DNA from: an uncultured Eubacteriales bacterium
GTDB lineage: Bacteria > Acidobacteriota > Aminicenantia > Aminicenantales > Aminicenantaceae
DNA length: 54,191 nt
NCBI GenBank assembly: GCA_964580235.1
Contig: CAZOJY010000007.1
Location: 1-54,191 of the forward strand
Direction: 5' to 3'
Under the pieces are notes generated by a model. That model was not told where the DNA came from and did no database searches. It saw only the letters and a program-made list of their open reading frames with translations. Positions 2,746 to 54,191 of the stretch are shown piece after piece; position 1 is the stretch's first letter, and each line of letters begins with the position of its first letter. The translations under genes were made by a program, and so were the position numbers.

Positions 2746-2757
2746 TGAAGGAATCCG

Positions 2758-3486: not shown

Positions 3487-3579
3487 TCATGGCGTTAAAG
3501 ATCCGAATTAGAGCGGAGGACATCTCTGATGGCAAAGAAACACATTGAAAATTGCACAGAAAGAGAATTAGCTGTCAGC

Positions 3580-11060: not shown

Positions 11061-12206
11061 TTAAATCTTGATAAATATCTTTTTCCGGTATAAAGGAATC
11101 ATGATAACGACCCAGAAAGAAAGGAGCAACAAAGGGAAAAGAAGGGACCCGTTGAGGTGGCCGGCAAGCGGCACCAACAGATGATCATAGATATAAGGAT
11201 AGAGAGCCATTGATCCTTGGCCTGTCGAAACCTTTGTCGCGATCAGAAACTTCACCATAACCGTTGAACTTGCATAAACGAATATCGCGTTTGTGCCCAG
11301 AACGAGAAACGGGAAAGCCCATTTTTTTGTTCCAAAGCCTTCCATTAGCCCAAAACATATGCTGAAAAGCATCAACGCCGCTCCCGCCGTAAAAAGCACA
11401 TAAGTGCTTGTCCAGAGCTGTTTGTTTATCGGAAAAACCGGATGAAGCAGCAGCCCCGAAGCTGTCAGAATGATCCCAAAAGTCAAAAGTCCGCCCGATT
11501 TCTGGAACACACTCTTGGAGGAACGGAGCCAATCCCCTGCCAGTGTTCCGAGCAAAGTGGTCGCAATGGCTGGAAAGGTGCTGAGTATCCCTTCCGGATC
11601 GAATTGAAGCTTGTACAAGTGCCCTCCCAGAACTCTTGTATCGATGTACCCGCAGAGGTTTCCTTGATAATCCCAAACGCCTGGTCCATACCCAGGAACT
11701 GGAACAAATTTCATCACCATATAATAGCCGGCCAGGAGAAAAATAACGATGGCGATTCTTCCTCGGGTCCTCACTTTCGAAAAAATCAGAGCCGAAGCAA
11801 AATAACAGATAGCGATGCGCTGCAGGACTCCCGGAATCCGGAGATGCGTAAATTCAAAGCGAAACAGCAACCGAAGTGCAATCCCGAGAGCGAAAAGGAT
11901 GAGACTTCTCCGGAATATTTTTGTGTACAGAGCGAAAGATCTGCCTTCTCGCTCCATTCTTTTCGTTAGAGCCAGAGAAATGGAAACACCGGCAATGAAC
12001 AGGAAAAAGGGGAAAATGAGATCTGTTGGTGTCCAGCCATGCCAATTGGCGTGACGGAGAGGAGCATACACATGCTGCCAGCTCCCGGGATTGTTCACCA
12101 AGATCATTCCGGCAATGGTGATGCCGCGGAACGCATCCAAGGAGGAAAGCCGGAGCCCAAAACCGGCCTCGCAGCTGCCCGTATTTCTCCTTTCCTCCCG
12201 CATCAT
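11061..12206 (-). CDS. nagX: Heparan-alpha-glucosaminide N-acetyltransferase-like (DUF5009/NagX) membrane protein
   Basis: RLSSLDAFRG, MILVN, HANWHGWTPTDLIFPFF, PGVLQRIA, DPEG, PINKQLWT motifs; start at 12206 by ATGA coupling to the GH20 stop. Confidence 0.85.
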   Translation of the reverse strand: MMREERRNTGSCEAGFGLRLSSLDAFRGITIAGMILVNNPGSWQHVYAPLRHANWHGWTPTDLIFPFFLFIAGVSISLALTKRMEREGRSFALYTKIFRRSLILFALGIALRLLFRFEFTHLRIPGVLQRIAICYFASALIFSKVRTRGRIAIVIFLLAGYYMVMKFVPVPGYGPGVWDYQGNLCGYIDTRVLGGHLYKLQFDPEGILSTFPAIATTLLGTLAGDWLRSSKSVFQKSGGLLTFGIILTASGLLLHPVFPINKQLWTSTYVLFTAGAALMLFSICFGLMEGFGTKKWAFPFLVLGTNAIFVYASSTVMVKFLIATKVSTGQGSMALYPYIYDHLLVPLAGHLNGSLLFPLLLLSFWVVIMIPLYRKKIFIKI

Positions 12207-14872: not shown

Positions 14873-16059
14873 CTCGGTTTCCTTGCTGAATTTTTTCCCA
14901 ACTTCTTCTTTACAGATTTCCCCTTGAAAATGGTGTCCAGCACCTGGAATTCTTGATCAAAAACAGCAACATTAGCGAGCTTGCCCTTTTGGATGCTTCC
15001 AATTTTATTTTCCAAACCGAGAATGCGCGCAGGATTTAAAGAAGCCATATTTATGGCTTGGTTTATCGTCACATCAGTCCAATCGATCATGTTTTTTACG
15101 GCTCTAATCAGGGTCAAAACACTTCCGGCCAAAACTCCGCTTCTGCGGATTGCTGCTTTGTTGTTCTTGACTTCTATTTCATTGTCACCCCAATGATAAA
15201 CACCATTCCCCACTCCTGAGGCCATTATCGAGTCAGTCACCAGACAAATATTTTTCGTTCCTTTTTTAGCCACGGCCAGGCGTAAAGCTGCTGGATGCAC
15301 ATGGATGCCATCAGCGATAAGTTCAGCCATTATGTTTTCGGTATCCAGCACTGCCCCGACAACACCCGGTTCTCTGTGGTTAAACCCGCTCATCGCATTA
15401 AAAAGATGGGTGGCGAGGCTTACGCCTTTTTCGAAACTCTCCACCGCTTGATGGAAGTTTGCGTTGCTGTGTCCAATAGCCACTACAAAACCATTTTTGT
15501 TTAACAAAGGAATAAACCGCATGTTGTTTTCGACCTCAGGTGCCAGGGAGAGGATGGATTTTAGGCCCTGAGTGGATTCGACCAATCGTTCACAATCCAT
15601 TTCGGTAATTCCTCTGATAAAAGAAGCCTGATGGACACCTTTTTTATGCGGACTCAAAAAAGGACCCTCAATATAGATTCCCAGGAGTTCAGATGGAAAA
15701 AGATCCATATTGGCATGTTTAATTATGTTGACGGTTTCGAGAACTGAGTCCATGGGTGCAGATATCGTGGCCCCCAGAAATCCAGTGACCCCATTTTTTG
15801 CCTGGTATTCTGCGATCCTTCGCAAGCTCTTTTCCTGATTGTCCATCACATCTTTTCCCAGAGCCCCATGGAGATGAAGATCCACCAGCCCTGGAACGAT
15901 GTATGCTTCGCCATAATCGATGAACTTGATCCCCTCATTCTGGAATTGATCCTTGCGGGCAAAAACTCCCAAAATTCTTTCTCCTTCTGCAACCACATAA
16001 CCCCTCTGGAGGATATCATCCGGAAGGATGATGTTTCCTCTGAAAGCGGTTTTATGCAT
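14869..16059 (-). CDS. nagA: N-acetylglucosamine-6-phosphate deacetylase
   Basis: PGLVDLHLHG, EGPF, APE, GHSNA, THLFNAM, DGIHV, TD motifs. Confidence 0.95.
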   Translation of the reverse strand: MHKTAFRGNIILPDDILQRGYVVAEGERILGVFARKDQFQNEGIKFIDYGEAYIVPGLVDLHLHGALGKDVMDNQEKSLRRIAEYQAKNGVTGFLGATISAPMDSVLETVNIIKHANMDLFPSELLGIYIEGPFLSPHKKGVHQASFIRGITEMDCERLVESTQGLKSILSLAPEVENNMRFIPLLNKNGFVVAIGHSNANFHQAVESFEKGVSLATHLFNAMSGFNHREPGVVGAVLDTENIMAELIADGIHVHPAALRLAVAKKGTKNICLVTDSIMASGVGNGVYHWGDNEIEVKNNKAAIRRSGVLAGSVLTLIRAVKNMIDWTDVTINQAINMASLNPARILGLENKIGSIQKGKLANVAVFDQEFQVLDTIFKGKSVKKKLGKNSARKPR

Positions 16060-16080
16060 GCTTGTCTTTCAGCCCGGATA

Positions 16081-16881
16081 TCAAGAATCCTTTTTTTCCC
16101 GGGACAAAAAATGGGATTTTTCCACTTCCCGTTTGTGTTCCAATACCCACAGGTAATAGTCTTTCCTCTTGAGAAGTTGCGCGGCTGCTTGATCGCAGAT
16201 GACTTTCACCCTGGGATGCAATTGAAGGACCGAAGCAGGACAGGAGGCAGTGATTGGCCCTTCGACCATTTGGGATATGGCCCGGACTTTTTTTTCGCCG
16301 GCCGCGACCAGGATGATTTCCTTGGCATCCATAATCGTCCCAATTCCCATGGTGATCGCAAATCTTGGTCCTTCTCTATTTCCAAAATTGTCTCTGATCG
16401 TCTCATCGGTTAACGTCTTTACACGTGTTCTTGCCTGGAGTGAAGAGGAAGGTTCGTTGAATCCGATGTGCCCATCTCTGCCGATGCCGAGAAGCTGGAT
16501 GTCTAACCCTCCCTTTGCTTTGATGGCCTCCTCATAGAGGTCGCATTCTCTCTCGACGTTCTCGGGTAAAGGATTGGGAATCAGGATGTTGTTTTTATTC
16601 ACATTCACATGCGAAAAAAAATTCCTGCGCATGTAGGAATGAAAGCTTAGGGGATCTTCCGGGTCCACTCCCAAATATTCATCCAGGTTGACGGTTGTCA
16701 CGGTGGAAAAATCCACGCGTCCCTTTTTATGATCTTTGATCAGATTTTTGTATATCCCAACCATGGTCTTCCCTGTGGCCAGCCCGAGAACCGCGCTGGG
16801 ATTTTTGCGAACGCAATCGACGATCCGAGAAGAAGCTTCTGCATAAACGTCTTTCTCGTTGGCTAAGATTATGATTTCCAC
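16081..16881 (-). CDS. nagB: Glucosamine-6-phosphate deaminase
   Basis: GLATGKT, NLDEY, LGIGRDGHIGFNEP, TMGIGTI motifs. Confidence 0.95.
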   Translation of the reverse strand: MEIIILANEKDVYAEASSRIVDCVRKNPSAVLGLATGKTMVGIYKNLIKDHKKGRVDFSTVTTVNLDEYLGVDPEDPLSFHSYMRRNFFSHVNVNKNNILIPNPLPENVERECDLYEEAIKAKGGLDIQLLGIGRDGHIGFNEPSSSLQARTRVKTLTDETIRDNFGNREGPRFAITMGIGTIMDAKEIILVAAGEKKVRAISQMVEGPITASCPASVLQLHPRVKVICDQAAAQLLKRKDYYLWVLEHKREVEKSHFLSREKKDS

Positions 16882-18219
16882 TCAGATCTCCTCCATGATT
16901 TGTTCAAATACCTTTTTCGCCGATTCCTCGTTTTTTCCCTCGACCTGAATCCGGACAACGGGTTCTGTATTGGAAGGACGCACATGAAGCCAGAAATCAG
17001 GATAATCCGCCCTGAGGCCATCTATAATCTGAATTTTACCTTCGCTGAATTTCTTGCCGATTTTATTCAGGATCACCCGGGCTTCGCGGAATGAAGCTTT
17101 CACCTTGTGTTTGATCATAAAATAATCCGGGAGTTCCTTCCTCAGTTCAGAGACCTTTTTCCCGGACCAAGCCATATATTCCAGGAGAAAGGCCATGCCG
17201 GCAAAGCTGTCCCGGCAGGTATGAACATCGGCAACCATAATTCCCCCGTTGCCTTCGCCCCCGATTTTTGCCCCATTTTCTTCCATCATCCGAGCAACAT
17301 TGATTTCTCCCACCCGTGACCGAAGCAGTTTTACACCTGCCTTTTGGGCGATATCTTCTATGACTTTGGATGTGGACAGATTGACCACAACTGGGCTCTT
17401 TTCCTTTTGCTGTAGGTAATAATTCACCGTGAGTGCCAGTGTATATTCTTCCCCGACCGGGACGCCATTCTCGTCTACGGCTGCCAGCCTGTCTGCATCC
17501 GCATCTTGGGCGAATCCCACATCTGCTTTGTATTCTCTTACTGTCTCACACAAAAGGTGCAGATTTGCGGCGACAGGCTCAGGGTTGCGCGGAAAACCTT
17601 CGCTCAACTCACAGTTCACACAGACCACTTCAGCTCCAAGTGTCTCGAGAAAATCCTTCACAAACGGAGACGCAGCACCTCCACAGGGATCGACAACCAC
17701 CCGCATCTTTTTTTGTTTAATGAGACTCGTATCAACAAGCCCCCTGATTTTTTTCTGATGAATCAAAAATGCTTCCTTCTCTATTTCGATTTTTTCCGGG
17801 TGTACCACCCGTTGGAACTTCCCTTGGTAATAAACATCCAACAGTTCTTCGGCTTCATAGGGATATAAATAATGCCCTCCTTTCCGTATCAATTTCAGAG
17901 CATTCCATTCGACCGGATTGTGGGATGCGGTTATAGATACTGCCCCATCCAGTTTTTTTTCTCTGGTGTAAATCTGGAGCGATGGAATCGGCAGAATCCC
18001 CACGTCCATGGGGGAAGCGCCACAGGAAAGGAGGCCTGCAAACACCGCATTTTTTACCATTTCCGCAGAGGGGCGGGTGTCTGAACCAACAGCGATTTTG
18101 CCTCCACCGATGTATGTGGAAAAAGCCTCAGAAAATTTTATGATCAACTGGGGTGTCAGGCTGGCTCCGACAATGCCCCGGATACCGGAAATACTGATTT
18201 TAAGGTCTGAAATTCTCAA
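16882..18219 (-). CDS. glmM: Alpha-D-phosphohexomutase (phosphoglucosamine mutase/phosphomannomutase), intact active site
   Basis: SISGIRG, phosphoserine loop ITASHNP, metal loop DADADR, GGEGNGG, RPSNTEP; exact sugar specificity uncertain. Confidence 0.8.
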   Translation of the reverse strand: MRISDLKISISGIRGIVGASLTPQLIIKFSEAFSTYIGGGKIAVGSDTRPSAEMVKNAVFAGLLSCGASPMDVGILPIPSLQIYTREKKLDGAVSITASHNPVEWNALKLIRKGGHYLYPYEAEELLDVYYQGKFQRVVHPEKIEIEKEAFLIHQKKIRGLVDTSLIKQKKMRVVVDPCGGAASPFVKDFLETLGAEVVCVNCELSEGFPRNPEPVAANLHLLCETVREYKADVGFAQDADADRLAAVDENGVPVGEEYTLALTVNYYLQQKEKSPVVVNLSTSKVIEDIAQKAGVKLLRSRVGEINVARMMEENGAKIGGEGNGGIMVADVHTCRDSFAGMAFLLEYMAWSGKKVSELRKELPDYFMIKHKVKASFREARVILNKIGKKFSEGKIQIIDGLRADYPDFWLHVRPSNTEPVVRIQVEGKNEESAKKVFEQIMEEI

Positions 18220-19556
18220 AATCTCATCCTGTCTCTTAGCTCATCTTCGACCGATTCCACGTCTTCCACTTTATCCCCTTCGATCGATATCCGCAAAACG
18301 AATTCTGTCGAAGAAGGCCTTATGTTGAACCAAACGTCATTTCTTTCCACACGGATGCCATCCGTGTAATCAGGATTTTCTCTGGAGTAGATCTCTTCAA
18401 GCCAGTCCATAACTCTGTATGTTCTCTCTGGCGGAACATCGATTTTGATCTTTTTCATGTGCTTTTCAGGAAATAGGGCTGTCAATGCGGAGAGGGATTT
18501 TTCTTCCCTAGCCATAAAATCTAAGATCAAGGCCAGAGCCAACAGGGAATCATATCCAAGTGAAAAATTCAACAGGCAAAGGCTGCCGCTCCCTTCCCCT
18601 CCCACTCCAGCACCCACAGACTCCATGACATGAACCACCGAAGATTGTCCGACCTTAGTGCGCGACAGGTCAATCCCGGTGTTTCGTGCAGCCCAATCCG
18701 CCCATGATGTGGTAACGGCCGTGGTAACGGCTTTGGAGATCCGGCCCTTCATAGAAAGGAGAATAAGTGGAAAGGTCATTTCCTCACTCAATGCTATTCC
18801 TTTCTCACTGACAAAAGAGATGCGGCTTCCGTCGGAATTCAACAAGAAGCCGATGTCTGCTCCGATGGACTTCACGACAGCTTCCACCTGAGAAGCATTT
18901 TCGACAGAGGGTTCGGGCGGATGGGGAAAGGGCTTTGCTGGGGTGTCATGAATTGGGATGAGATCGAGGTTGAAAAAATCACCATAGTGCTTCAAATAGG
19001 ACGAGGAGGCTCCATTACAGGGGTCGGCAACCACTTTGTAGTGCTTTTCCCTGATTCTTTCGGCATCGACAACGTGGGATAACTCATCGAGGTAGAGATT
19101 CATCGGGAACGTCATCGTCCGGGTTTGCCCAAGCTCCTTCCACGAAGCTTTTGTGAAACTGCCCGCTTCGTAGATGTTGAACACTTCCGCGCCTTCCGAA
19201 ATATCCAGGTAATCTCCTTCTGTGTCAAGGAGGATCACGGCATTCCAAGAAATCGGATTGTGCCCTCCTGTAATGGCAATCCCTCCCGAATATTTTTCCC
19301 TCCCCATCAAAAATTGCAAAAATGGCGTGGGAAGCAGCCCAAAGTCTGCGCAGTCCAAGCCCCCGGCAATGACCGATGAGAGAACGGCCATGGCGAACAT
19401 ATGGCTCGAGATACGGGAGTCCCTGCAGAGGGCGATCTGTCCCCTTTCGAAGGTGGAAGAAAAGGCCGAAGAAAATTTCGAAACCACTTCCACATTGAGT
19501 GCACCCGGCACTTCCCCCCGAATCCCCGAAACATTGATCCGAAGTCGATCCTTCAT
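18216..19556 (-). CDS. Second phosphohexomutase paralogue with a degenerate active site
   Basis: Same fold motifs (NVSGIRG, GGEG, RPSSTE) but ITGGHNP instead of ITASHNP and NSDGSR instead of DxDxDR; translationally coupled to the intact copy. Confidence 0.85.
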   Translation of the reverse strand: MKDRLRINVSGIRGEVPGALNVEVVSKFSSAFSSTFERGQIALCRDSRISSHMFAMAVLSSVIAGGLDCADFGLLPTPFLQFLMGREKYSGGIAITGGHNPISWNAVILLDTEGDYLDISEGAEVFNIYEAGSFTKASWKELGQTRTMTFPMNLYLDELSHVVDAERIREKHYKVVADPCNGASSSYLKHYGDFFNLDLIPIHDTPAKPFPHPPEPSVENASQVEAVVKSIGADIGFLLNSDGSRISFVSEKGIALSEEMTFPLILLSMKGRISKAVTTAVTTSWADWAARNTGIDLSRTKVGQSSVVHVMESVGAGVGGEGSGSLCLLNFSLGYDSLLALALILDFMAREEKSLSALTALFPEKHMKKIKIDVPPERTYRVMDWLEEIYSRENPDYTDGIRVERNDVWFNIRPSSTEFVLRISIEGDKVEDVESVEDELRDRMRF

Positions 19557-27742: not shown

Positions 27743-28537
27743 CTAATTTTGCATTTTGCCGTCGATCCCGACCACGACTTTTTTAACATTAATATTAGTG
27801 CCTGACATCTCCACAGCTCTTTCAACGATGTGGTTCAATCCAGAACAGCAGGGTACCACCATGGTTGCCACGGTCACTGAATAAACGGTGTTTTTCTTCA
27901 GAATCTCTGCAATTTTTTCGACATAGGTACTTGTCTCATCCAACTTCGGACAGGCAATGATCAATTTTTTCCCTTTCAGGAGGTCCTGATGAAAACTTCC
28001 TAATGTGAACGCGGTGCAGTCAGCTGCGATCAGAAGATCGCTTTCGTTGAAATAAGGGGCAAAAGGTGAAATCAAATGAAGTTGGATTGGCCATTGGCTC
28101 AACTCTGAGGTCCCAGATACAGTATTGTCCTTTCGTGGGGCAGGTGATCTATTGATTTCCTGAGCCATGCTTCCCGGGCAGCCAAAAGTATAGCGTCTAT
28201 CGGGTGGGAGCTCAGATTCTGCTTCTGCCCCTTCTTCCTCGTGCTCTTTGTGGTTAATTCCATGCACATGATCGGCCGCCTCCTCCCCCCGAGTTTTCAA
28301 TACGTGTCGGAAGGTTGCATCGGGGTCATATTCATCACTTTCCCTTTCGACAATCTTCAGCGCGCCAGTCGGACACACATCCAGGCAGGCCCCCATCCCG
28401 TCACAAAATATTTCTTTTGCCAGAACGGCCTTATTCTCATCATCCAGTACCAAGGCTCCTTCTGCACAGGCATCGGTACAAACACCGCACCCGTCGCATT
28501 TATCCCGGTCAATTTGGATGATTTTTCTCTTTCTCAT
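27743..28537 (-). CDS. 2x[4Fe-4S] ferredoxin-domain protein of the type usually linked to hcp/HcpR (FrdX-like)
   Basis: CDGCGVCTDACAEGA and CDGMGACLDVCPTGA; GCPGS, QWPIQL, ADC, ACPKLD, VPCCSGL. Confidence 0.85.
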   Translation of the reverse strand: MRKRKIIQIDRDKCDGCGVCTDACAEGALVLDDENKAVLAKEIFCDGMGACLDVCPTGALKIVERESDEYDPDATFRHVLKTRGEEAADHVHGINHKEHEEEGAEAESELPPDRRYTFGCPGSMAQEINRSPAPRKDNTVSGTSELSQWPIQLHLISPFAPYFNESDLLIAADCTAFTLGSFHQDLLKGKKLIIACPKLDETSTYVEKIAEILKKNTVYSVTVATMVVPCCSGLNHIVERAVEMSGTNINVKKVVVGIDGKMQN

Positions 28538-31886: not shown

Positions 31887-32552
31887 TTATATACTGAGGA
31901 GTTCTTCTCTCAACAGGGTGCAGTTATTGATCAAGACTCTATTTCCTTTAACCTCGATGAGGCCCTCCTCCTGCATCTGTTTTAAGTTGCGGGATAGGGT
32001 TTCGCTGATCGTCCCCAAAATTTTGGCCAGTTCTCCTTTTTTGATTTTTAATTCTACAAGACAATATTGATCACCCGAACAATAGGAAAGAAGATATCGG
32101 ATTAAACGCTGGCGCACCGTTCGGAGGCCCAGTGATTCGATCTTGTTGCTCAATACCACACACTTTCTGGCCAGAAGATGCACAAAATACACAGCAATGC
32201 GTGGATTTTTAGCTATCTCCTGGTTGATTTTTTTCTTAAGAAAAAAAAGGACGTCGGAATCAGTCAATGCTTGGGCAAAAACAGGGTATGTCTCTGAAGC
32301 AAAAACGATCGCTTCGCCCAAAAAACCTCCCGGGCCAAGGCGAGTCACTTCCGCTTCCCGTCCCTGTTCATCCATTTTGTAGACGCGGATTTCTCCTTTT
32401 TCCACATAATAAAATCCATCCGCTTCATCCTGAGCTGAGAATAATATCTCTCCTTTTTGAAACTTTTTAAGACGGCCCAGTGCGATCAACCCATCTGGAA
32501 TGGCCATCCCTTCATTTTTTTGTGTTTTTCCCTTTTCCATTTTCAGCTTCAT
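31887..32552 (-). CDS. Crp/Fnr family transcriptional regulator (HcpR/DNR-like)
   Basis: cNMP-binding-like domain (GFYYVEKGEIRVYK, GFLGEA); HTH LAKILGTISETLSR with the FNR-type E..SR recognition helix; no N-terminal FNR Cys cluster. Confidence 0.9.
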   Translation of the reverse strand: MKLKMEKGKTQKNEGMAIPDGLIALGRLKKFQKGEILFSAQDEADGFYYVEKGEIRVYKMDEQGREAEVTRLGPGGFLGEAIVFASETYPVFAQALTDSDVLFFLKKKINQEIAKNPRIAVYFVHLLARKCVVLSNKIESLGLRTVRQRLIRYLLSYCSGDQYCLVELKIKKGELAKILGTISETLSRNLKQMQEEGLIEVKGNRVLINNCTLLREELLSI

Positions 32553-32572
32553 GGATCAACGGAGATTATGAC

Positions 32573-33943
32573 TCATTCAACTAAGCTGTACAATTTTTCC
32601 CGCGATATCTCCAACGCCAGGTTAAATTCTCCGGCCAAAACTTGGGCAGCCACCGATGCGGCAAACTCCTTGGCTGTCTGGATGCCCATGATATGAAGCG
32701 CTTCCCTCCCAACCGGGGATATCAGGCCCTCCTGCGAAGACACCACTCCCGCCTCGATATTAGGCAACTCTACCCGGTAAACGATATCTCCCCGGTCTTT
32801 TTCTACAAAGATATTCTGAAAACAGGACACCAAAGGGCTGTAAGGATTGACCTTTGTGGCTTTATATATCGCAGGCAAAATCTCACCTCCCATACCGGAA
32901 TAGAAGGGACAGCCGAGCTTTTGGGATCCGATACGATCGACCTCCACAAAAGAAAGGAACTTTTCAGGATCGACTTTCAAGAATGTTTTAAAATCTGAGG
33001 CAGGCACCCTCACTTGAGCCGATGCTTTCCTGCCTCTCTTGTTTCGCGGGCTGGGCTTCAAATCCCCGTCATGTCCTTGGGCAATCACACTCAATTTATA
33101 AACGACATCCTGTGCCGATATTTTTTTTTCCACCTCTTGCTTGATGAAACCCACAGCACGGCTGATATCTCCATGTCCACGGAAGTTGGAAAATTCTGCC
33201 ACAAAGTCCACATAGAGGATAAATCCCCGCAGCGTCTCCGCATGATCAAAATCCACCGAACGGATTCGGCCGCCAAAATCTGACATCTTATCCTGCATTT
33301 TGACAGTCTCCTCTGGGAGAAATGCCTCGATAATATTCTGAGCCTCTGTGCGCTGTTCCTTTGTTTGGAAAATAAATCCCAAACAACGAACTGCCCGGGC
33401 AAATTCCGCCACTTTGACCTCTGCTCCACCCAATTTATTGATCAGATAACTCCCCCGGGTCACCCCGATCGGGCCCAGCCCTGTTCCGTACACCAGGAGG
33501 TTCGTGAATGTTTTGCGGACGTCGCCTGTGACAGCAATCTGTCCCGCATACGAAAAATAATCTTCTTGGCCGCCGACATAATTTGCGACAAGAGGGGCAA
33601 ACTGATCCAAGGACTTCAGCTCGGACGCACAGAGAGAACATGTGTGATTTTCATCACGAATATCCAGCTCCCAAACAAGATTTTCTTTTGCGCAGAGATA
33701 ACGAGTCTTGTAAGGCTTATCCGGAACATGAATAGAACGGAAGTTCTTCCCTGTTATTTCTTTGATAAAATGCTGACGGCACAGGGCTGCGATCCTGAAA
33801 TTTTCGGGAGGATCAATGCTAAAACTTGTTTCCAGCTCCTCCTCCACCTTCCAGGGAGCGAGAAGGTCTTCCCTCAATCTTTCGACACACGCGTGGATGA
33901 CTCTGCTTTCCGTGTCTTTTTCTCTTGCTGCCATCAAAAACAC
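32573..33943 (-). CDS. Divergent class I HMG-CoA-reductase-fold protein with catalytic motifs replaced and a Cys-rich N-terminus
   Basis: Collinear matches to HMGR motifs: TRGSYLINKLGGA, GDLKPSPRNKRGRKASAQVRVP, IGSQKLG, GDIVYRVELPNIEAGVV, VAAQVLAGEFNL; by-eye alignment only. Confidence 0.7.
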   Translation of the reverse strand: MFLMAAREKDTESRVIHACVERLREDLLAPWKVEEELETSFSIDPPENFRIAALCRQHFIKEITGKNFRSIHVPDKPYKTRYLCAKENLVWELDIRDENHTCSLCASELKSLDQFAPLVANYVGGQEDYFSYAGQIAVTGDVRKTFTNLLVYGTGLGPIGVTRGSYLINKLGGAEVKVAEFARAVRCLGFIFQTKEQRTEAQNIIEAFLPEETVKMQDKMSDFGGRIRSVDFDHAETLRGFILYVDFVAEFSNFRGHGDISRAVGFIKQEVEKKISAQDVVYKLSVIAQGHDGDLKPSPRNKRGRKASAQVRVPASDFKTFLKVDPEKFLSFVEVDRIGSQKLGCPFYSGMGGEILPAIYKATKVNPYSPLVSCFQNIFVEKDRGDIVYRVELPNIEAGVVSSQEGLISPVGREALHIMGIQTAKEFAASVAAQVLAGEFNLALEISREKLYSLVE

Positions 33944-33960
33944 ACTTCAGAGCCTGGATG

Positions 33961-35694
33961 TCAATACCGCCAGCTGGTTAGATCCGCTCCTGCCGGGGCT
34001 GTTTTTAGCATGCGGTCCACAAACTTTGGGATAAACATCTGATGGTAGCGGAGTCTGGAAATGGCATTGGGTTGGGTGTGATCCCCATTCCAGCAATGCT
34101 CGGCCCTATCCCCGTAATCCACTTCTCCGCTGTAATAAGGATTTGTTGTGCTTTCCAAGAATTCTTCAGTCAGATATACCGCATTGTTGAGGTAATAATT
34201 ATCCATGTCCCCGCAATAGATATGGATCTTACCCATAAGCCTGGGACCTAAAGTGGCCCAGTCTCTCTTCAAGATATAGCTGAGGTCGTAATTTTCTCGC
34301 CAGTACTCGGCCACTTCGTGATCGATTTCACCTGTCAGTTTATTCCAGATCGGCTTGGGATAACCATCCTCTCCCACCGGAGAATACACCGCCTGCCAGA
34401 TGTCCCACTGGTCTCCTGACCGGCCCTTTGTCGCGATGGCCAACTCTTTGTGGTTTGTATCTTCTAAGGTGCAGCTGATTTCTCCCAACCAGTTTCGTTT
34501 GCCAGGTCTGGGTGTTTTTTTGAAAAAGCTGTCGAGATAGTAGGCGTTTTTATCCTCATAAATGTTGACCAAACAGTATTGCCGAAAATCGATCGGATCA
34601 GGACAGGCCGCATAACATCCGTTATATTCGTCGGGATAAAAGACCTGGACACCCAGGGCTTCCCAACCTCCGGTGGATCCGCCGTAGAGAGTTCTGGCCC
34701 AGCCCTCCCCTATGCCGCGGAATTTTTCCTCGATGAAAGGGATCAGCTCATAAGTAATCGCATCCCCATAAGGTCCGAGATTAGCGGAATTGACAGCGTA
34801 GGAGTCGTCATAATAGGGGTTGGCGTGCTGAACCTCGATGATGATAACCCTTGGCGTTCCGGGTGCCGTCCACCACTTGTAAAACTTATAAGCAAATTCC
34901 TGTTGAGTCTTGTTGTAGCCCGGCCAATCAAAACGGTCGCTGTATTCGGGTTCGACATCAGGATCAGGGGGTTTCTCGCGGAATCCGCCAAAAGTGTAGG
35001 GAAAGTGGCCATGATTGATGACAAGAGGATAATGCGCATCGGGATGTTCGTCAAATCCTTCGGGTAAAAGGATGCATGCACCCAGAAACATCGGACGTCC
35101 CCAGAATTCTGAGAGGAGTGTGCTCTGGATTTTTACGTGTTTGATGTACTTGGTATCCTTGGGTGGGAGGATCGGCGGGATTTCCTGGTCCAAAACAATC
35201 TGGATGGTTCTATCTTTTTGCGGATCGATGGACATTTTCTCCGGTGTGCTGTAAAAGTTGCCTGGCTTTCTGTTCCAGTGTTGACCTTCGCCTTTATCAG
35301 GCGGGACCTTTATGGTATGGCCATCCGAACGATGGAAGGTTTCATACCGGTTCAAAAATCCCTGCACCCAATAATCGCCAGGAGGAATCTCTGCAATGCT
35401 TTTCAAAGGATAACCAAAAGCGCTCCCTTCGATGACAGCAGTTTCCCCAGGTTTAAGTCCGTCCACGTCGACGCCGAATACGAGCTGCGTGTCTGGACCA
35501 TCACTGATCTGGAATCGAGGCTCTCGGCTGTCGTCCTTAGAAACCAACAACAACACACGACCATCTAACGGCTCTGCGCTCCGCTCCTCTGGAAAAGAAA
35601 ACCCGAAGGACAATTGGCTCTTTTGTGTGCTTCGATTCTGCTGACAGGCAAAAATCAAAAGAAATACACTCAACAGAATAAATAATTTTTTCAT
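33961..35694 (-). CDS. Esterase-like alpha/beta-hydrolase lipoprotein with an N-terminal extra domain
   Basis: Lipobox IFAC; GGSTGG elbow, GDMD acid, EHCW His; start at ATG 35694 with GGAGG SD. Confidence 0.75.
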   Translation of the reverse strand: MKKLFILLSVFLLIFACQQNRSTQKSQLSFGFSFPEERSAEPLDGRVLLLVSKDDSREPRFQISDGPDTQLVFGVDVDGLKPGETAVIEGSAFGYPLKSIAEIPPGDYWVQGFLNRYETFHRSDGHTIKVPPDKGEGQHWNRKPGNFYSTPEKMSIDPQKDRTIQIVLDQEIPPILPPKDTKYIKHVKIQSTLLSEFWGRPMFLGACILLPEGFDEHPDAHYPLVINHGHFPYTFGGFREKPPDPDVEPEYSDRFDWPGYNKTQQEFAYKFYKWWTAPGTPRVIIIEVQHANPYYDDSYAVNSANLGPYGDAITYELIPFIEEKFRGIGEGWARTLYGGSTGGWEALGVQVFYPDEYNGCYAACPDPIDFRQYCLVNIYEDKNAYYLDSFFKKTPRPGKRNWLGEISCTLEDTNHKELAIATKGRSGDQWDIWQAVYSPVGEDGYPKPIWNKLTGEIDHEVAEYWRENYDLSYILKRDWATLGPRLMGKIHIYCGDMDNYYLNNAVYLTEEFLESTTNPYYSGEVDYGDRAEHCWNGDHTQPNAISRLRYHQMFIPKFVDRMLKTAPAGADLTSWRY

Positions 35695-35860
35695 GCTTTT
35701 TCCCTCCAATGAACCTGAATTGTTGCCTTAAAAATGTCGATGCCAATCCACTGCCTTCCTGTTATCAAGGAAGAATATGAACGTACTTGCATCACAACTT
35801 CCAGCAATATCTGAATATTATCCTGAAATTGCTGCAAATGACAACAAAAACATTTTTGCG

Positions 35861-35928
35861 CTGAATTATTCATAAGCATGATTTTTTTTACCGGGATTTT
35901 AAGCTCGTACATGAATTATCCAGGTTAA
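35861..35928. repeat. MITE-like element, copy 2 (about 68 bp), inverted relative to copy 1
   Basis: 35862-35885 matches the reverse complement of 31668-31691 at 23/24; 35911-35924 is the exact reverse complement of 31488-31501. Confidence 0.8.
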
Positions 35929-36045
35929 GCCACTGCTATAAAGAAAGGGGTAAGGCGGATCGGCTGGGAATTCCTCCGTTGTCAAATAACAGGCCCCCAT
36001 TTCTTCTTGATTTAGAGAGGGAATCCCCTTATATTTATCAGGGTC

Positions 36046-37089
36046 ATGAATCCCCTCAAAACCATCCATGCCATTGCTCCGATTCGGATCAACGACATCG
36101 GCGGCTGGACAGACACGTGGTTTGCACAGCATGGAAAAGTCCTCAACATGGCTGTTTTTCCGTTGGTGGAAGTTCGAATCAAAGTGCTAAAAAACAGGGG
36201 GAAATTCGACCAGCGAGTCCTGGTCCGATTAGAAAACTATGGAGAAGCTCTGTGGATAAATCCTGAAAAGCCAGCCTATGACCAACATCCCCTAATCCAA
36301 GGAGCCGTTAATGCTTTGACCATCCCTAAAGATGTGATGCTTCAGATTTCCCTTTTCTCCCATGTCCCCGCCGGAAGTTCTACCGGCACATCCGCCTCGG
36401 TTTGTGTGGCATTGTTGGGTGCGCTGAATTATATCTCTCATCATAATCATCCCATCCATGAGATTGCCTATTTAGCCCACCGTGTAGAAACAGAGAAACT
36501 CGGGCTGCAAAGCGGGATCCAAGACCAGATGGCCGCAGCCCATGGGGGTATCTGTTTTATCGACATGCACAAATATCCAGAAGCTATTGTCACAAAATTG
36601 GATCTCGAGGAACATCTCCTTGAGGAACTGGGCCGGCGAATATCTTTGGTCTATCTAGGACAGTCCCACAGTTCATCTGCCATGCATAAAGAAGTCATCA
36701 CATTTCTTGAAAAAAAAGGGGCTCAATTCACCATAATTCAGGCGCTGCGAAATTTGGCTGACCGGGCAAAAAATCATTTGCTTGGGGGAGATCTTGAAGC
36801 CTTTGGCGAGGTGATGATCCAAAACAATGAGTGCCAGAGATCTTTGCATGCAGGACTCATATCAGAGGAGGCGGATTCCATCATCCGTATTGCCAAAAAA
36901 TACAAGGCAGCCGGCTGGAAGGTGAATGGGGCAGGTGGAAAAGGAGGATCTTTGACAATACTGGGCAATCAGGAAGAAAAATGGCGCGAGGGGATGCTCG
37001 GAGAGATAAATTCTCTGGGAAAGGGAATCCGGTCAATCCCGATCTCCCTTGCAAGATTTGGGGTAACGGTTCAGGAAGAATATCCGTAG
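36046..37089 (+). CDS. GHMP-family sugar kinase (HddA/fucokinase-like)
   Basis: APIRINDIGGWTD, PAGSSTGTSAS, GIQDQMAAAHGG, WKVNGAGGKGG. Confidence 0.85.
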   Translation: MNPLKTIHAIAPIRINDIGGWTDTWFAQHGKVLNMAVFPLVEVRIKVLKNRGKFDQRVLVRLENYGEALWINPEKPAYDQHPLIQGAVNALTIPKDVMLQISLFSHVPAGSSTGTSASVCVALLGALNYISHHNHPIHEIAYLAHRVETEKLGLQSGIQDQMAAAHGGICFIDMHKYPEAIVTKLDLEEHLLEELGRRISLVYLGQSHSSSAMHKEVITFLEKKGAQFTIIQALRNLADRAKNHLLGGDLEAFGEVMIQNNECQRSLHAGLISEEADSIIRIAKKYKAAGWKVNGAGGKGGSLTILGNQEEKWREGMLGEINSLGKGIRSIPISLARFGVTVQEEYP

Positions 37090-42982: not shown

Positions 42983-43471
42983 TCATAATATTTTTTCGAG
43001 GCGGTGTTTCCGCTGCAAAATGAGATTGCACCACCGAGCATCACTCAAATGGACCAGGTCTCCCACTTCGGCAGACAACAGGTGCGCCACTTCTGGACTG
43101 ACTGCTATATCCCCTATTTTCCCATCCCGCACAATCTTTACAGTAGCTTGTTTCCCTTCTCTTTCATTTATCTGGCCTCCCTTGAAGCCTTCTTTAGCCA
43201 GATCTAAGGTACCGGTCACCAACCCTTGAATTTTTTCTTTTGATTTTGTTTTTGTCAAGAAGCTTATGACCACGCCTATCAGCAAACTTCCTGCTAATCC
43301 ATACAAAGCCCTAGTGTACTTAAAACCTCCAGCCGGGTCGACATCATGAGAGAATGGAGTAATGAGAATCGGCCAAACAATAGAGAGTGCCACGATCATG
43401 GATCCCCCAAACATCGTCCAGAATGCCGCCGACGACACATTGATAGACAAGTGACAAAAAGGACATCTCAA
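42983..43471 (-). pseudogene. Remnant: C-terminal part of a sodium:solute symporter-like gene
   Basis: AAFWT..GGS, RALYG, GLVTGT..A...FKG, DLVHLSDARW resemble the SSS C-terminal tail; no N-terminal helices, no SD; reading frame degenerates after DARW. Confidence 0.55.
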
Positions 43472-46699: not shown

Positions 46700-46844
46700 C
46701 AGGATTTTTGCTGCCCAGATTTTAAACTTTAAAAAGCGAATTTGCAAATAAAGCAGAAGCAAAGACACATAAAAATGGAACCGTCCCCTTTTTTTTTGTA
46801 TGATGTCGCAGAAAGAAATAGTCTGGATTTATGCAGGAGGTGTG

Positions 46845-48272
46845 ATGAATCGAAGGCAGTTTTTAAAAACAACCGGCGCAGCCAGCGCGGCTCTGGGTAG
46901 TGTCGGGCTCGGTTTTTTCGGATACGAGGCCGGGAGGGACCCTGAATCATACACAGGATGGGAGCTCCATGAGGGAGCTTTTCAGACATTCAACAGGAAA
47001 AGATACGCCAAGGATCATCCCCACTATAAAAAGGTCGGAACGACCAGCCGGCCAGATGCCCGCACCGAAGTCATTTTCTACAGACGCGGGGACTTCATGA
47101 GATACTGGAAGGACGACACCAGAATGGAGGGACTGCCCGAGCATATGCAGGTGTATTACAAGCAAAATCCAGATGTTCTGGAGCAAGATATTTATCAGAT
47201 GAAGGAAGTCTTCCCAAAGATGAGAAAGGACAACCGCAAATACCGGAATAAATTCATTCTTGCCACAGCATGGTCCAATGCTATGGGCGCTGTATCTCCA
47301 CGGCCGATAAGCCAACCGCCCGAAGTGTCTGATTTTCCACGCAGAGACCGTTTTGAAGGGACACGTGAACCTGTGAAGATGAAAAGCCCGGAAAGGACAT
47401 CCAAACTCATGAAAAAAATCGCCCATGAGCTGGGATCCACTCTCGTGGGTATTGCCAAACTCAACCCGGATTGGGTTTATCTCTACCCAATGATGGGACG
47501 GGGATTTGAACCGGATAAACCGATTGTGATTCCCAGGCACTGGCAGTATGCACTTATAGTAGGAACTCCGATGTCCTGGGACCCGATGTACGCCAATCCC
47601 AATTATGGGACTTCTGATGATGCCTATTCCCGATCCCGGATCATCGCATTCCGTGTGGCTTCGTTCATCAAACAATTGGGCTACGCTGCCAGGCCTCACA
47701 CACCCGGGACCTCATACGATTTGATGGTTCCCCCCATTGCTATCGATGCGGGGCTGGGCGAACAGGGCCGCCACGGCGTCATGATCACACCAGAGCTCGG
47801 ATGCAACATCCGTCCGGCTGTCATCACAACGAATATTCCTCTCGTTCCGGACAAACCGATCGATTTTGGGGTCCAGAGGTTCTGCGATACCTGTAAAATC
47901 TGTGCAAAAAATTGTCCCAGCGGGGCGATTCTATTCGGCAACAAAGTGGAAGTCCGAGGCTACTTGAGATACAAAATTGATACCGGTAAATGCCACACCT
48001 TTTGGAGCCAGAATCAGGGAAACATGGGCTGCCGGATATGCATCGCTGTTTGTCCCTACACACGAAAAGCGAACTGGCTTCATAAGGCTGCACTCAAAGT
48101 TTCGGCCAACGATCCGACAGGAATTTCACACCGTGTCCTCACCGGACTCCAGAAACGGTTTTATCCTGGACCCGATCCGCAAAAATACTACAGCCCATCA
48201 TTTGGAGGAGAGAATGCATCCTATAGAAAACCTCCCTGGTGGCTTCATGCAGAGGATTTTATCGAATTCTAG
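46845..48272 (+). CDS. rdhA: Reductive dehalogenase catalytic subunit (cobalamin, 2x[4Fe-4S]), TAT-exported
   Basis: AGGAGG SD; TAT signal NRRQFLK; DAGLGEQGRHG..ITPELG.NIR; FCDTCKICAKNCPSGAI; CHTFW..GCRICIAVCPY. Confidence 0.85.
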   Translation: MNRRQFLKTTGAASAALGSVGLGFFGYEAGRDPESYTGWELHEGAFQTFNRKRYAKDHPHYKKVGTTSRPDARTEVIFYRRGDFMRYWKDDTRMEGLPEHMQVYYKQNPDVLEQDIYQMKEVFPKMRKDNRKYRNKFILATAWSNAMGAVSPRPISQPPEVSDFPRRDRFEGTREPVKMKSPERTSKLMKKIAHELGSTLVGIAKLNPDWVYLYPMMGRGFEPDKPIVIPRHWQYALIVGTPMSWDPMYANPNYGTSDDAYSRSRIIAFRVASFIKQLGYAARPHTPGTSYDLMVPPIAIDAGLGEQGRHGVMITPELGCNIRPAVITTNIPLVPDKPIDFGVQRFCDTCKICAKNCPSGAILFGNKVEVRGYLRYKIDTGKCHTFWSQNQGNMGCRICIAVCPYTRKANWLHKAALKVSANDPTGISHRVLTGLQKRFYPGPDPQKYYSPSFGGENASYRKPPWWLHAEDFIEF

Positions 48273-48284
48273 AGGAGGTTGATT

Positions 48285-48602
48285 ATGCATTTTTTCACCA
48301 CCGGATTGTTTTGGTTCATGGAAGGTATTTTTGTCTGTTTGAGTGTGTTGGGATTCAAGATATGGACAGAAGACCGGGGAATCCCGATGCCCGTATGGAA
48401 ATGGGCACTGCTCAGCATATGGATATTAATGTTCTCATTCTCGATCGCCTTTGTCGGGACAAATCTGGGCGAGAAGGAATCAACGGCCGCGCTTTTGGGA
48501 GGCATCCTGTTCGGCCTGATCACGATAATCGCAGGAGTCGGGCTGTGGCGGTTAATTCTGACCGGGAAAAAAGTTATGAAATTGCCACAGGATCCCTGCT
48601 GA
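48285..48602 (+). CDS. rdhB: Reductive dehalogenase membrane anchor (three TM helices)
   Basis: 105 aa, three hydrophobic segments, WKW and LGE..AA..G..LFG pattern; GGAGG SD; 12 bp after rdhA. Confidence 0.75.
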   Translation: MHFFTTGLFWFMEGIFVCLSVLGFKIWTEDRGIPMPVWKWALLSIWILMFSFSIAFVGTNLGEKESTAALLGGILFGLITIIAGVGLWRLILTGKKVMKLPQDPC

Positions 48603-51992: not shown

Positions 51993-52217
51993 TGCAAAAA
52001 TCCCTCCTTTTTTATTTATCACAATTCGCGAACAAAATTCCAATTCAATCTTTAATCTCATGGAATGCATGGCCAAAACCAAAAGAAACAACCAGTCAGG
52101 CAAGCTGATATTCAACAGATGCAAGAATTGCAGCGGTCTTGAAAAGGCTTCCACCCGAACGAAATAAGCTGGAGAGGGAGTGACAAGAAATAGAATTTTT
52201 TGTAATATAATAAAGCG

Positions 52218-54191
52218 ATGAGAAGAAAAATCCTTTTTCATCTCGTTGTGTTTATTTGTATTTTTTCAATCCTATCTTTTTCCGGCCAGAAAAAAAAATC
52301 GCCCAAAGACCTGAGCCCTTCCTTCCGAAAGTGGTTGGAAGAAGAGGTTGTCTATATCATCACCCCCACAGAAAAAGAAGTTTTTCTCCAACTCGAAACA
52401 GATCGGGAAAGAACCCAATTCATGGAGGCTTTCTGGAGGTACAGAGATCCAAATCCCAACACTCCTGAGAATGAATTCAAGGAGGAGCACTACCGCAGGA
52501 TAAAATATGCCAACCAGTATTTTGGAAAAGAAGGACCGGGTGCAGGATGGAGGTCCGCGATGGGACGGATTTACATCATTCTGGGAGAACCTGGATACAT
52601 CGAAAGATACGAAAATATGGCAGAGGTCTACCCGATGGTCATCTGGTCTTATGCAGCGAGGCCGGAATTGGGTCTTCTTCAGGCGTTTAATGTTGCCTTT
52701 TTCAAAAGGGGAGGCATCGGCGAATATGAGCTTTACTCTCCCGTACGATTTGGACCTCAGCAGCTGTTGATCCATTATAAAGGGGACCCCTCGGATTATC
52801 TATCCGCCTATCGGGAACTCTTGCGAATCGAGCCCTCGATAGCGGAGGCATCCCTCACCTTGCTTTCAGGAGAGAGGGCCTTCGTCGCTTCCCCCTCCCT
52901 CGCATCCGAGGTCCTCCTTCATGCTACTATCCCGAGCGTTCCCTACAGACAGGTCGAGGACTCCTGGGCAGAGAAACTTCTTGAATATAAAGATATCGTG
53001 GAAGTCGAATATTCTACCAACTACATCAACAGCGACTTTTCGGCAAGTGTTATCGAAGATAAATCGGGCATCTATTTCGTTCATTATCTTATCGAGCCCG
53101 GCCGCCTGACATTCGAGCAGTACGGAGGACGCTTCCTCACCAATCTGGAAGTCAACGGAAACATATCGGATTTAGAGGGAAACACTGTTTATCAATATGA
53201 AAAAACCATCCCTATCGAATTCGATCAAGAGCAGATGAATAATATCAGAAACAAACTTTTCAGCTTCCAGGATATGTTTCCTTTGGTCGAAGGCGAGTAT
53301 AAGCTTAGCGTGCTTTTTAAAAATACCATCTCCAAAGAATTCACCAGTGCTGAAGAGGCCATCGTGATTCCCGCGTCATCGAACGATCTCCAAATGAGTC
53401 CTCTGATCCTTGCCAATAAAGCTTTGACAAACTCAAAATACAAAGGACAAAGCAAGCCATTCCTTTTGAGCGGCATCCAGCTTGTCCCCTCGCCCCGGAA
53501 TGATTTCTGTCAACAAGATCATCTGTATTTGTTTTTCCAGATTCAAGGTTTGACCCCGGATCTAAAGGATAACGGAACGATCGAATTTTCCATCTCAACC
53601 GAAGATAAAATTGTCCAATCGTTCCACAAAGAAATCAAAGATTATCCAAACGCGCCTAATTTTTTCCAGGAGATTCCTCTTTCTGGATTAGCCTCAGGAT
53701 ATTACAAAGTAAAGGCTTCTCTCATGAATGAAAACCAGGCTGAAATCCTGTCCGAAGATGCGGATTTTTCCCTAAGCTTTGCCTCTTCCATCCCAAGGCC
53801 TTGGCTGTTATCGCTGCCTGTATCCTCTCCAGAAGACCCTTCCTATTCGAATATTTTGGGAAACCAGTACATGAATAAAAAAAATCCCTTTAGAGCGAGA
53901 GGATTGCTCGAAGAGGCTTACCGAAAAAATCCTGAGTCCTCCAAATTCGCGCTGGATTTTTGCCAGAGCCTTTTAAGCTTGAAAGAATATAAAAATTTGA
54001 AGGATATTGCCCTGCCTTTTCTTGATCGGCCAGAAAAACATGAATTTTATGCCTTGCTGGGGCAGTCCAGCCAGAAACTCGGCGAATGGGCGGAAGCCGT
54101 TATTTATTACAAGAGTTACTTGGCCTATTACGGAACCCATATTCAGATTCTCAATTCTATCGGTGATTGTTATAATCAGTTGGGCAATAAA
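52218..54191 (+). CDS. GWxTD-domain protein with C-terminal TPR-like repeats, partial (runs off the window; not in the ORF track)
   Basis: Open frame from ATG 52218: signal peptide, KWLEEEVVYIIT, FWRYRDPNPNTPENEFKEEHYRRI.YAN..F...G.GWRSAMGRIYI.LG.P; last codons read GDCYNQLGNK. Confidence 0.85.
   Translation, partial: MRRKILFHLVVFICIFSILSFSGQKKKSPKDLSPSFRKWLEEEVVYIITPTEKEVFLQLETDRERTQFMEAFWRYRDPNPNTPENEFKEEHYRRIKYANQYFGKEGPGAGWRSAMGRIYIILGEPGYIERYENMAEVYPMVIWSYAARPELGLLQAFNVAFFKRGGIGEYELYSPVRFGPQQLLIHYKGDPSDYLSAYRELLRIEPSIAEASLTLLSGERAFVASPSLASEVLLHATIPSVPYRQVEDSWAEKLLEYKDIVEVEYSTNYINSDFSASVIEDKSGIYFVHYLIEPGRLTFEQYGGRFLTNLEVNGNISDLEGNTVYQYEKTIPIEFDQEQMNNIRNKLFSFQDMFPLVEGEYKLSVLFKNTISKEFTSAEEAIVIPASSNDLQMSPLILANKALTNSKYKGQSKPFLLSGIQLVPSPRNDFCQQDHLYLFFQIQGLTPDLKDNGTIEFSISTEDKIVQSFHKEIKDYPNAPNFFQEIPLSGLASGYYKVKASLMNENQAEILSEDADFSLSFASSIPRPWLLSLPVSSPEDPSYSNILGNQYMNKKNPFRARGLLEEAYRKNPESSKFALDFCQSLLSLKEYKNLKDIALPFLDRPEKHEFYALLGQSSQKLGEWAEAVIYYKSYLAYYGTHIQILNSIGDCYNQLGNK

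Follow-up and report, generated by a model that had tools for sequence, protein, structure and literature searches.

A bare rdhAB gene pair on an Aminicenantes contig probably encodes an exported, membrane-anchored reductive dehalogenase of a widespread clade

We found that two adjacent genes, rdhA and rdhB, in a 54,191-nucleotide stretch of DNA from an uncultured bacterium (contig CAZOJY010000007.1 of GenBank assembly GCA_964580235.1, positions 1 to 54,191; "the window" hereafter denotes this whole stretch) probably encode a two-subunit reductive dehalogenase (RDase), which by analogy would work as a periplasm-facing quinol:organohalide oxidoreductase and serve its host as an optional electron sink. 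Established for the pair are its homology and fold, its motifs and export signal, the partner subunit, purifying selection and taxon distribution. RdhA is an RDase and not QueG, and rdhAB is a new member of a widespread, already annotated, uncharacterised clade, not a new system. The features that carry this finding are listed below by their coordinates in the window, where SmPceA and DhPceA denote PceA of S. multivorans and of Desulfitobacterium hafniense.

46845..48272, + strand: rdhA, 475 amino acids (aa), predicted corrinoid/Fe-S reductive dehalogenase catalytic subunit
46845..46931, + strand: twin-arginine translocation (TAT) signal peptide of RdhA, MNRRQFLK... to about residue 29, with Pfam and TIGR models above cut-off
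47625..47627, + strand: predicted catalytic Tyr261, equivalent by alignment to SmPceA Tyr246, NpRdhA Tyr426 and DhPceA Tyr337
47751..47813, + strand: core GLGEQGRHGVMITPELGCNIR (aa 303-323), whose last residue, Arg323, corresponds to SmPceA Arg305 and NpRdhA Lys488
47883..47918, + strand: first Fe-S motif CxxCxxCxxxCP, CDTCKICAKNCP (aa 347-358)
47991..48056, + strand: second Fe-S motif, Cys383 plus CxxCxxxCP (CRICIAVCP, aa 396-404)
48063..48083, + strand: RKANWLH with Arg407 and His413, which align with DhPceA Lys489 and His495
48285..48602, + strand: rdhB, 105 aa, predicted membrane anchor with three transmembrane helices
48471..48479, + strand: Glu-x-Glu (E63-x-E65) of RdhB, invariant in two family alignments and falling on PceB E61-x-E63

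The TAT signal, the two Fe-S motifs and the conserved core that the original prediction, made from the sequence alone, had read in RdhA are all present, and the corresponding models score above cut-off. The TAT motif RRQFLK reaches 24.8 bits with Pfam TAT_signal (cut-off 22.7) and 19.1 bits with TIGR01409 (cut-off 16.7), and it occurs in 109 of 119 full-length members of the RdhA family. Among 40 RdhA homologues its R3 and R4 are invariant, as are Tyr261, Arg323 and all eight cluster cysteines (C347/350/353/357-P and C383/396/399/403-P). We also observed that the equivalent of Tyr261 is conserved in 83 of 84 other RDase representatives, nearly all of which keep the Tyr/Arg pair together with the cluster cysteines. 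Against the model TIGR02486 'reductive dehalogenase' RdhA scores 186.3 bits (E = 1.2e-54; NCBI cut-off 160.35), whereas with the QueG model TIGR00276 it reaches 60.3 bits, below the cut-off of 200. Among PDB sequences it is matched best by S. multivorans PceA (8.8e-42), followed by NpRdhA (8e-39) and D. hafniense PceA (3.7e-33), with QueG at about 1e-8; a search with the RdhA family profile left the order of matches unchanged, and over both searches the RDases lie between 1e-33 and 1e-46 and QueG between 1e-8 and 1e-11. The first 36 Foldseek matches of the AlphaFold2 model (predicted local distance difference test, pLDDT, 71.8) are all PceA, NpRdhA or DhPceA (E about 1e-15, TM-score 0.47-0.56), and QueG follows at about 1e-4. 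Since the hidden Markov model (HMM), PDB and Foldseek scores all favour RDases and a TAT signal is present, QueG identity was rejected, in agreement with the earlier view that RdhA is unlike QueG.

The partner gene that had been described directly downstream, with three transmembrane segments, was also recovered: it encodes a 105-aa RdhB with three predicted helices (H7-30, H37-62 and H66-92). As a single sequence RdhB has no match in the PDB, local Pfam or NCBIfam, and it is recognised only by its family profile, its structure model and a newer precomputed Pfam family. The best PDB match of the family profile is PceB (8q4h_C; E = 0.029, full length). The same chain is the top Foldseek match of the AlphaFold2 model (pLDDT 77), which was built from an alignment of database homologues, with a probability of 1.00, TM-scores of 0.63/0.72 and a root-mean-square deviation of 2.3 Å, while the E-value of the second match is 40-fold worse. 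Additionally, precomputed public annotation puts an identical protein in Pfam PF27193 'VcrB'. Invariant motifs of the RdhB family are FWF..G, WKW and G-E-x-E, the last of which contains the Glu-x-Glu (ExE) pair; the corresponding glutamates of PceB lie in the loop between helices 2 and 3, on the outer membrane side beside the menaquinol site (PMC10624902). The C-terminal tail of RdhB has four Lys/Arg residues, and because of these positive charges the ExE loop is predicted to lie outside the membrane. From the adjacency of rdhB, the PceB matches of profile and model, and PF27193, it follows that rdhAB is a genuine exported, anchored 'respiratory-type' pair, and together with the TAT models these results bear out the respiratory architecture originally proposed.

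For the quinone site, DhPceA residues were matched with a numbering offset of 48, set from Tyr337. Lys489 and His495 of DhPceA touch the menaquinone head group (PMC10624902), and we infer from the alignment that Arg407 and His413 of RdhA would be their functional equivalents. Arg407, His413 and the ExE pair of RdhB all align with quinone-site residues of DhPceAB; such residues are conserved in quinone-independent organisms too (PMC10624902), and for that reason they cannot separate a quinol model from one with a protein donor.

Corrinoid content, quinol as the donor, dehalogenation and the nature of the substrate are what we infer for RdhAB, and a working scheme can be outlined as follows. RdhA would fold with its cofactors, presumably a corrinoid and two [4Fe-4S] clusters, in the cytoplasm; the TAT system would export it, and the three-helix RdhB would anchor it to the cytoplasmic membrane on the outer side. 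By analogy with Desulfitobacterium PceA2B2, quinol would be oxidised at a site made up of the C-terminal helices of RdhA and of RdhB, with protons leaving through the Glu-x-Glu loop, and electrons would reach the corrinoid by way of the two Fe-S clusters and there reduce a carbon-halogen bond with the aid of Tyr261 and Arg323. The window carries SdhA/B and a multihaem cytochrome, which indicates a host with membrane electron transport. Because this host is an Aminicenantes heterotroph of anoxic marine sediment, rdhAB is probably an optional terminal reductase or electron sink for natural organohalogens, not the core of an obligate lifestyle, and in a heterotroph with SdhA/B and cytochromes an optional electron sink is the most likely role. 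The facultative character that had been suggested for any organohalide reduction is retained, since by gene content the host degrades peptides and glycans heterotrophically.

Next, we examined the distribution of the pair. A protein search with RdhA gave 726 matches, more than 120 of which are full-length and at least 63% identical, and several matches already carry the name 'reductive dehalogenase' (those from Aminicenantales, Acidobacteriota, KSB1 and Latescibacterota). With more than 120 full-length public orthologues, many of them so named, and with carriers reported in 2019 (PMC6472368) and 2025 (PMC12219181), the description of the organism as an unrecognised organohalide reducer does not stand. 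Several JGI records name family members 'epoxyqueuosine reductase' or 'ferredoxin' (P0007, P0016, P0032, P0038 and others), which by the HMM scores looks like mis-annotation. An exact look-up of RdhA in public assemblies returned no match.

Upon scanning species-representative genomes, we observed 52 rdhA loci with 53-88% identity in about nine phyla, labelled Aminicenantes, Acidobacteriota, KSB1, Gemmatimonadota, Latescibacterota, Phycisphaerae/Planctomycetes, Zixibacteria, Desulfobacterales and Victivallales. Their sources include cold seeps, the Black Sea, Guaymas and comparable sites, and several are cold-seep metagenome-assembled genomes (MAGs; CSMAG_*) of the 2025 cold-seep catalogue (PMC12219181). 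All 51 complete loci have rdhB directly 3' of rdhA, the 52nd ending inside rdhA, and clustering of the flanking open reading frames (ORFs) over the 52 loci left rdhA and rdhB alone as common to all. Outside the window, the neighbouring S9 peptidase, Omp85, GGT and sulfatase genes are found again in just the two or three nearest relatives (L001, L002 and L053); because only the two genes themselves are conserved, the functional link to sulfatases and peptidases that had been proposed finds no comparative support. In three loci a hybrid histidine kinase-receiver-HD(-GYP-like) protein is encoded directly upstream of rdhA on the same strand (L011:178-2706, L012:3048-5813 and L045:2967-5819); it is not present in the window and may be a dedicated regulator in one subclade.

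The closest RdhA loci are 88% identical, one of them in an Aminicenantes cold-seep MAG. Relative to these 88%-identical relatives (L001 and L002), the ratio of nonsynonymous to synonymous substitution rates (dN/dS) comes to about 0.05 in rdhA and about 0.18 in rdhB, and both genes are therefore held by purifying selection. At the nucleotide (nt) level, the JGI contig L053 is 98.7% identical over rdhA-rdhB-GGT, and the last 11.7 kb of the window, from 42.4 kb onwards, are collinear with L002 at 80-84% identity. Because these two assemblies keep the same arrangement, the rdhAB locus is not chimeric. Furthermore, the GC content of rdhAB, overall and at third codon positions (GC3), is like that of the neighbouring genes, and the SdhA of the window is nearest (84-88%) to metagenome proteins, the best named one being from Candidatus Aminicenantes. 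Four related loci (L002, L004, L006 and L008) are titled 'uncultured Eubacteriales bacterium' in public records; with L002 this similar to the window, whose other genes point to Aminicenantes, these labels look wrong.

We also placed RdhA among known RDases. Clustering at 50% reduced the RdhA family to one representative and left about ten further full-length relatives at 35-51% identity, the only cultured source among them being Vibrio sp. SS-MA-C1-2 (41%); all other RDases match residues ~175-420 of RdhA only. A neighbour-joining (NJ) tree over a 160-column core was built from the family and its near relatives, the 84 other RDase representatives and three solved enzymes, and the family and near relatives form a clade in 95 of 100 bootstraps, apart from the 84 representatives and from the three solved enzymes, to which core identity is 37-43%. 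From the clustering and the core tree it follows that the clade has its own N-terminal domain and joins no characterised orthologue group; judged by sequence, it is deep-branching and lies outside every such group compared. By its scores RdhA does not fall with QueG, and in the core tree it sits in a separate clade. Under the scheme of Hug et al. 2013, a named RDase orthologue group reportedly needs at least 90% amino-acid identity to a characterised enzyme; RdhA, compared over the core with solved and characterised enzymes, is at most 43% identical to any of them.

The region preceding rdhA has these coordinates:

46769..46844, + strand: intergenic region between a divergent Omp85-like gene and rdhA, containing the ribosome-binding site (RBS) AGGAGG

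The rdhA gene starts at ATG 46845, five bases past this RBS (46835-46840), and an alternative in-frame ATG at 46800 has no such RBS. The start of rdhB is ATG 48285, 12 nt after the rdhA stop, and its RBS AGGAGG (48272-48277) shares its first base with the last base of the rdhA stop codon. Upstream of rdhA, a stretch with TATGAT is kept in the closest relatives only; a conserved palindromic operator was sought there and none was found, nothing being kept beyond the closest relatives, and a sigma-70 scan of the region gave no match on the + strand.

The pair is preceded by the Omp85-like and S9 peptidase genes and followed by GGT and sulfatase genes, and the products encoded elsewhere in the 54 kb include peptidases, NagA/NagB and a GH20 hexosaminidase, an Opp transporter and a second sulfatase, as well as SdhA/B and a multihaem cytochrome. 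Neither rdhC/T/K nor a MarR or two-component regulator was found within ~10 kb of rdhAB, which therefore lacks the make-up of a classical organohalide-respiration cluster. No tRNA lies near rdhAB, the search for mobile-element marks gave only short chance repeats flanking the pair and no compositional shift, and the window has no second rdhA copy. The GGT, sulfatase and S9 peptidase neighbours, and the absence of accessory, regulatory, cobalamin and mobile-element genes beside the pair, had been described correctly. Among regulators of relevant families, the nearest is a Crp/FNR protein (31887-32552), 14 kb from rdhAB; it was considered as an RdhK/CprK candidate and rejected at that distance, with CAP, DNR and FNR as its nearest relatives. 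This gene stands in a group at 31887-37089, beside a weak HMG-CoA-reductase-like protein, a 582-aa ORF with no Pfam match (33961-35709) and a GHMP kinase, which may be a mevalonate-related cluster with one component of no assigned family.

Elsewhere in the window, a pair of SdhA/SdhB-type flavoprotein and Fe-S subunits (1009-5085) has no adjoining membrane-anchor gene and is flanked by a TauE sulfite-exporter-like gene and, on the opposite strand, by a multihaem cytochrome c. An amino-sugar utilisation block (11061-19556, - strand) comprises an HGSNAT-like acetyltransferase, a GH20 hexosaminidase, a NagA-like amidohydrolase, a NagB-like isomerase and two tandem phosphohexomutase paralogues. 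At 27743-28537 (- strand) a 264-aa protein has an N-terminal 4Fe-4S dicluster ferredoxin domain and an otherwise uncharacterised sequence, with no tblastn kinship to RdhA. Of a sodium:solute symporter-family protein (42986-43435, - strand) only the C-terminal ~180 aa are left, L002 having a full 611-aa gene; the window is short of ~1.46 kb relative to L002 at this point, which indicates a gene remnant or a deletion. The reading frame at 52206-54191 (+ strand, 662 aa) is open to the window end, and its L002 counterpart is a 698-aa GWxTD-domain and TPR protein.

Several observations weigh against a quinol-fed dehalogenase. Corrinoid genes and a cobalamin riboswitch were not found in the 54-kb window, in which no quinone biosynthesis genes are visible either. 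Searches of sequencing runs recovered no RNA runs, and their DNA matches, from metagenomes of microbial mats and hydrothermal vents, were all weak. In RdhA itself, the position of SmPceA Asn272 is occupied by Pro, and the N-terminal ~130 aa are clade-specific and unmatched by Pfam PF13486; the clade and its near relatives include no characterised member, with the core 37-43% identical to characterised enzymes. Finally, the cold-seep survey of 2025 appears to place Aminicenantaceae and Gemmatimonadota enzymes among 'quinone-independent' types (PMC12219181), which would oppose quinol as the direct donor.

We tentatively consider a variant in which the clade is a distinct functional subfamily, horizontally spread and acting as a probably constitutive quinol-oxidising terminal reductase for one compound that is ubiquitous in anoxic marine sediment. 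That compound could be a common bromo-/chloro-aromatic, a halogenated amino-acid residue or possibly a non-halogenated substrate. This possibility is suggested by the clade's own N-terminal domain, by identities of at least 60% across about nine phyla, by single-copy occurrence and by the invariably bare two-gene cassette.

It is unlikely, in our judgement, that RdhA is an exported corrinoid/Fe-S reductase of the RDase superfamily whose physiological substrate is some other widespread periplasmic compound and not an organohalogen. The Tyr/Arg dyad that is invariant here is required for dehalogenation in PceA and NpRdhA, RdhA scores above the RDase-specific HMM cut-off, its partner is a true RdhB, the characterised enzymes of the TAT and RdhB architecture are all dehalogenases, and the sediments of the relatives are rich in organohalogens (PMC12219181). 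Such a substrate would nevertheless accord with the conservation of RdhA, which is 61-69% identical across about nine phyla, near the level of SdhA (74-88%) and unusual for RDases. It would also accord with a cassette that never comes with substrate-sensing regulators, with the clade-specific N-terminal domain and with the monophyly of the clade and its near relatives apart from the 84 RDase representatives (95 of 100 NJ bootstraps), and the superfamily already has one non-dehalogenase in QueG.

Somewhat less probable still is a dehalogenase fed by a protein complex as in Dehalococcoidia (hydrogenase/OmeAB type), with RdhB as a mere anchor. Although the Pfam family of RdhB is named for Dehalococcoides VcrB, and ExE and His are kept in quinone-independent organisms as well (PMC10624902), no hydrogenase, OmeA/B or HupX-like genes adjoin rdhAB in the window and none are conserved across the 52 loci. 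The SdhA/B and cytochromes of the host suggest a quinone pool, and the RdhA family may not be the one that the survey counts in its 'quinone-independent' class. That rdhAB was left behind by horizontal transfer and is now silent or decaying, without a function, is highly improbable: it comes without a regulator and without the maturation genes rdhT and rdhC, and it matched no RNA runs, but both frames are intact with strong RBSs, independent assemblies from this species and from related ones share the arrangement, the composition fits the host, and dN/dS values of 0.05-0.18 disfavour this account.

A study of 2019 described Aminicenantes as major carriers of rdhA (PMC6472368), and the cold-seep catalogue of rdhA-like genes by Han et al. 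2025 lists respiratory-type genes in Aminicenantaceae and Gemmatimonadota as well as a 'novel clade' with an N-terminal helix, TAT and rdhB (PMC12219181). An ocean-wide survey of 2025 found ~95% of marine RDases to be without TAT and RdhB (PMC12660952), which puts rdhAB in the minority type with both features. Should the enzyme be active, organohalide reduction would extend to Aminicenantes and to several further uncultured sediment phyla commonly regarded as fermenters of peptides and glycans, with a bearing on natural halogen cycling in marine sediments, an idea already raised from metagenomes. Our analysis adds that the clade is a minimal rdhAB cassette, strongly conserved across phyla and under strong purifying selection, and it offers a well-defined, tractable target for the first biochemistry on a non-classical marine respiratory RDase.

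We also compared the pair with known systems. QueG has the superfamily fold and a ferredoxin-like dicluster domain in common with RdhA and is cytoplasmic. The catabolic cytosolic RDases NpRdhA and BhbA are 38% identical in the core and conserve the Tyr, with Lys488 replaced by Arg in RdhA; they have neither TAT nor RdhB and carry a fused NAD(P)H-reductase/ferredoxin module, NpRdhA being ~700 aa long in contrast to the 475 aa of RdhA. With TAT and RdhB present and no fused reductase module, this type was rejected, as had been anticipated. Hybrid transmembrane RdhA proteins (Atashgahi 2019, PMC6797604) occur widely in candidate phyla of marine sediment, among them Aminicenantes, KSB1 and Zixibacteria; they have three N-terminal helices fused to the enzyme, the type being defined by one to three, and lack TAT and rdhB, whereas RdhA has TAT and a separate anchor gene. 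This type was likewise rejected, since the only N-terminal hydrophobic stretch of RdhA is the TAT h-region and rdhB is separate.

The seep rdhA-like genes of Aminicenantes, Aminicenantaceae and Gemmatimonadota (PMC6472368; PMC12219181) resemble the pair in taxa, habitats, TAT plus rdhB and single copy. Those genes are known from survey and docking only, and the RdhA clade may belong to either of two survey groups, 'quinone-independent respiratory' or 'novel clade with TMH+TAT+rdhB'. S. multivorans PceA (PDB 4UQU and related) is the best sequence match among solved structures, with 43% core identity, Tyr246 and Arg305 conserved and fold matches at E about 1e-15; it differs in that rdhAB has no large rdh/corrinoid-biosynthesis region nearby and in that N-terminal similarity is limited to a short stretch. 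The menaquinol:organohalide oxidoreductase PceA2B2 of Desulfitobacterium hafniense TCE1 (PDB 8Q4H; PMC10624902) differs in its N-terminal domain, with 37% identity in the catalytic core, and the rdhAB locus is without pceC and pceT and belongs to an uncultured Aminicenantes heterotroph. Like rdhAB, however, PceA2B2 combines a TAT-exported RdhA with a three-helix RdhB, and the ExE loop, the Tyr/Arg pair, both Fe-S motifs and the Lys/Arg and His residues at the quinone-head positions all align between the two systems.

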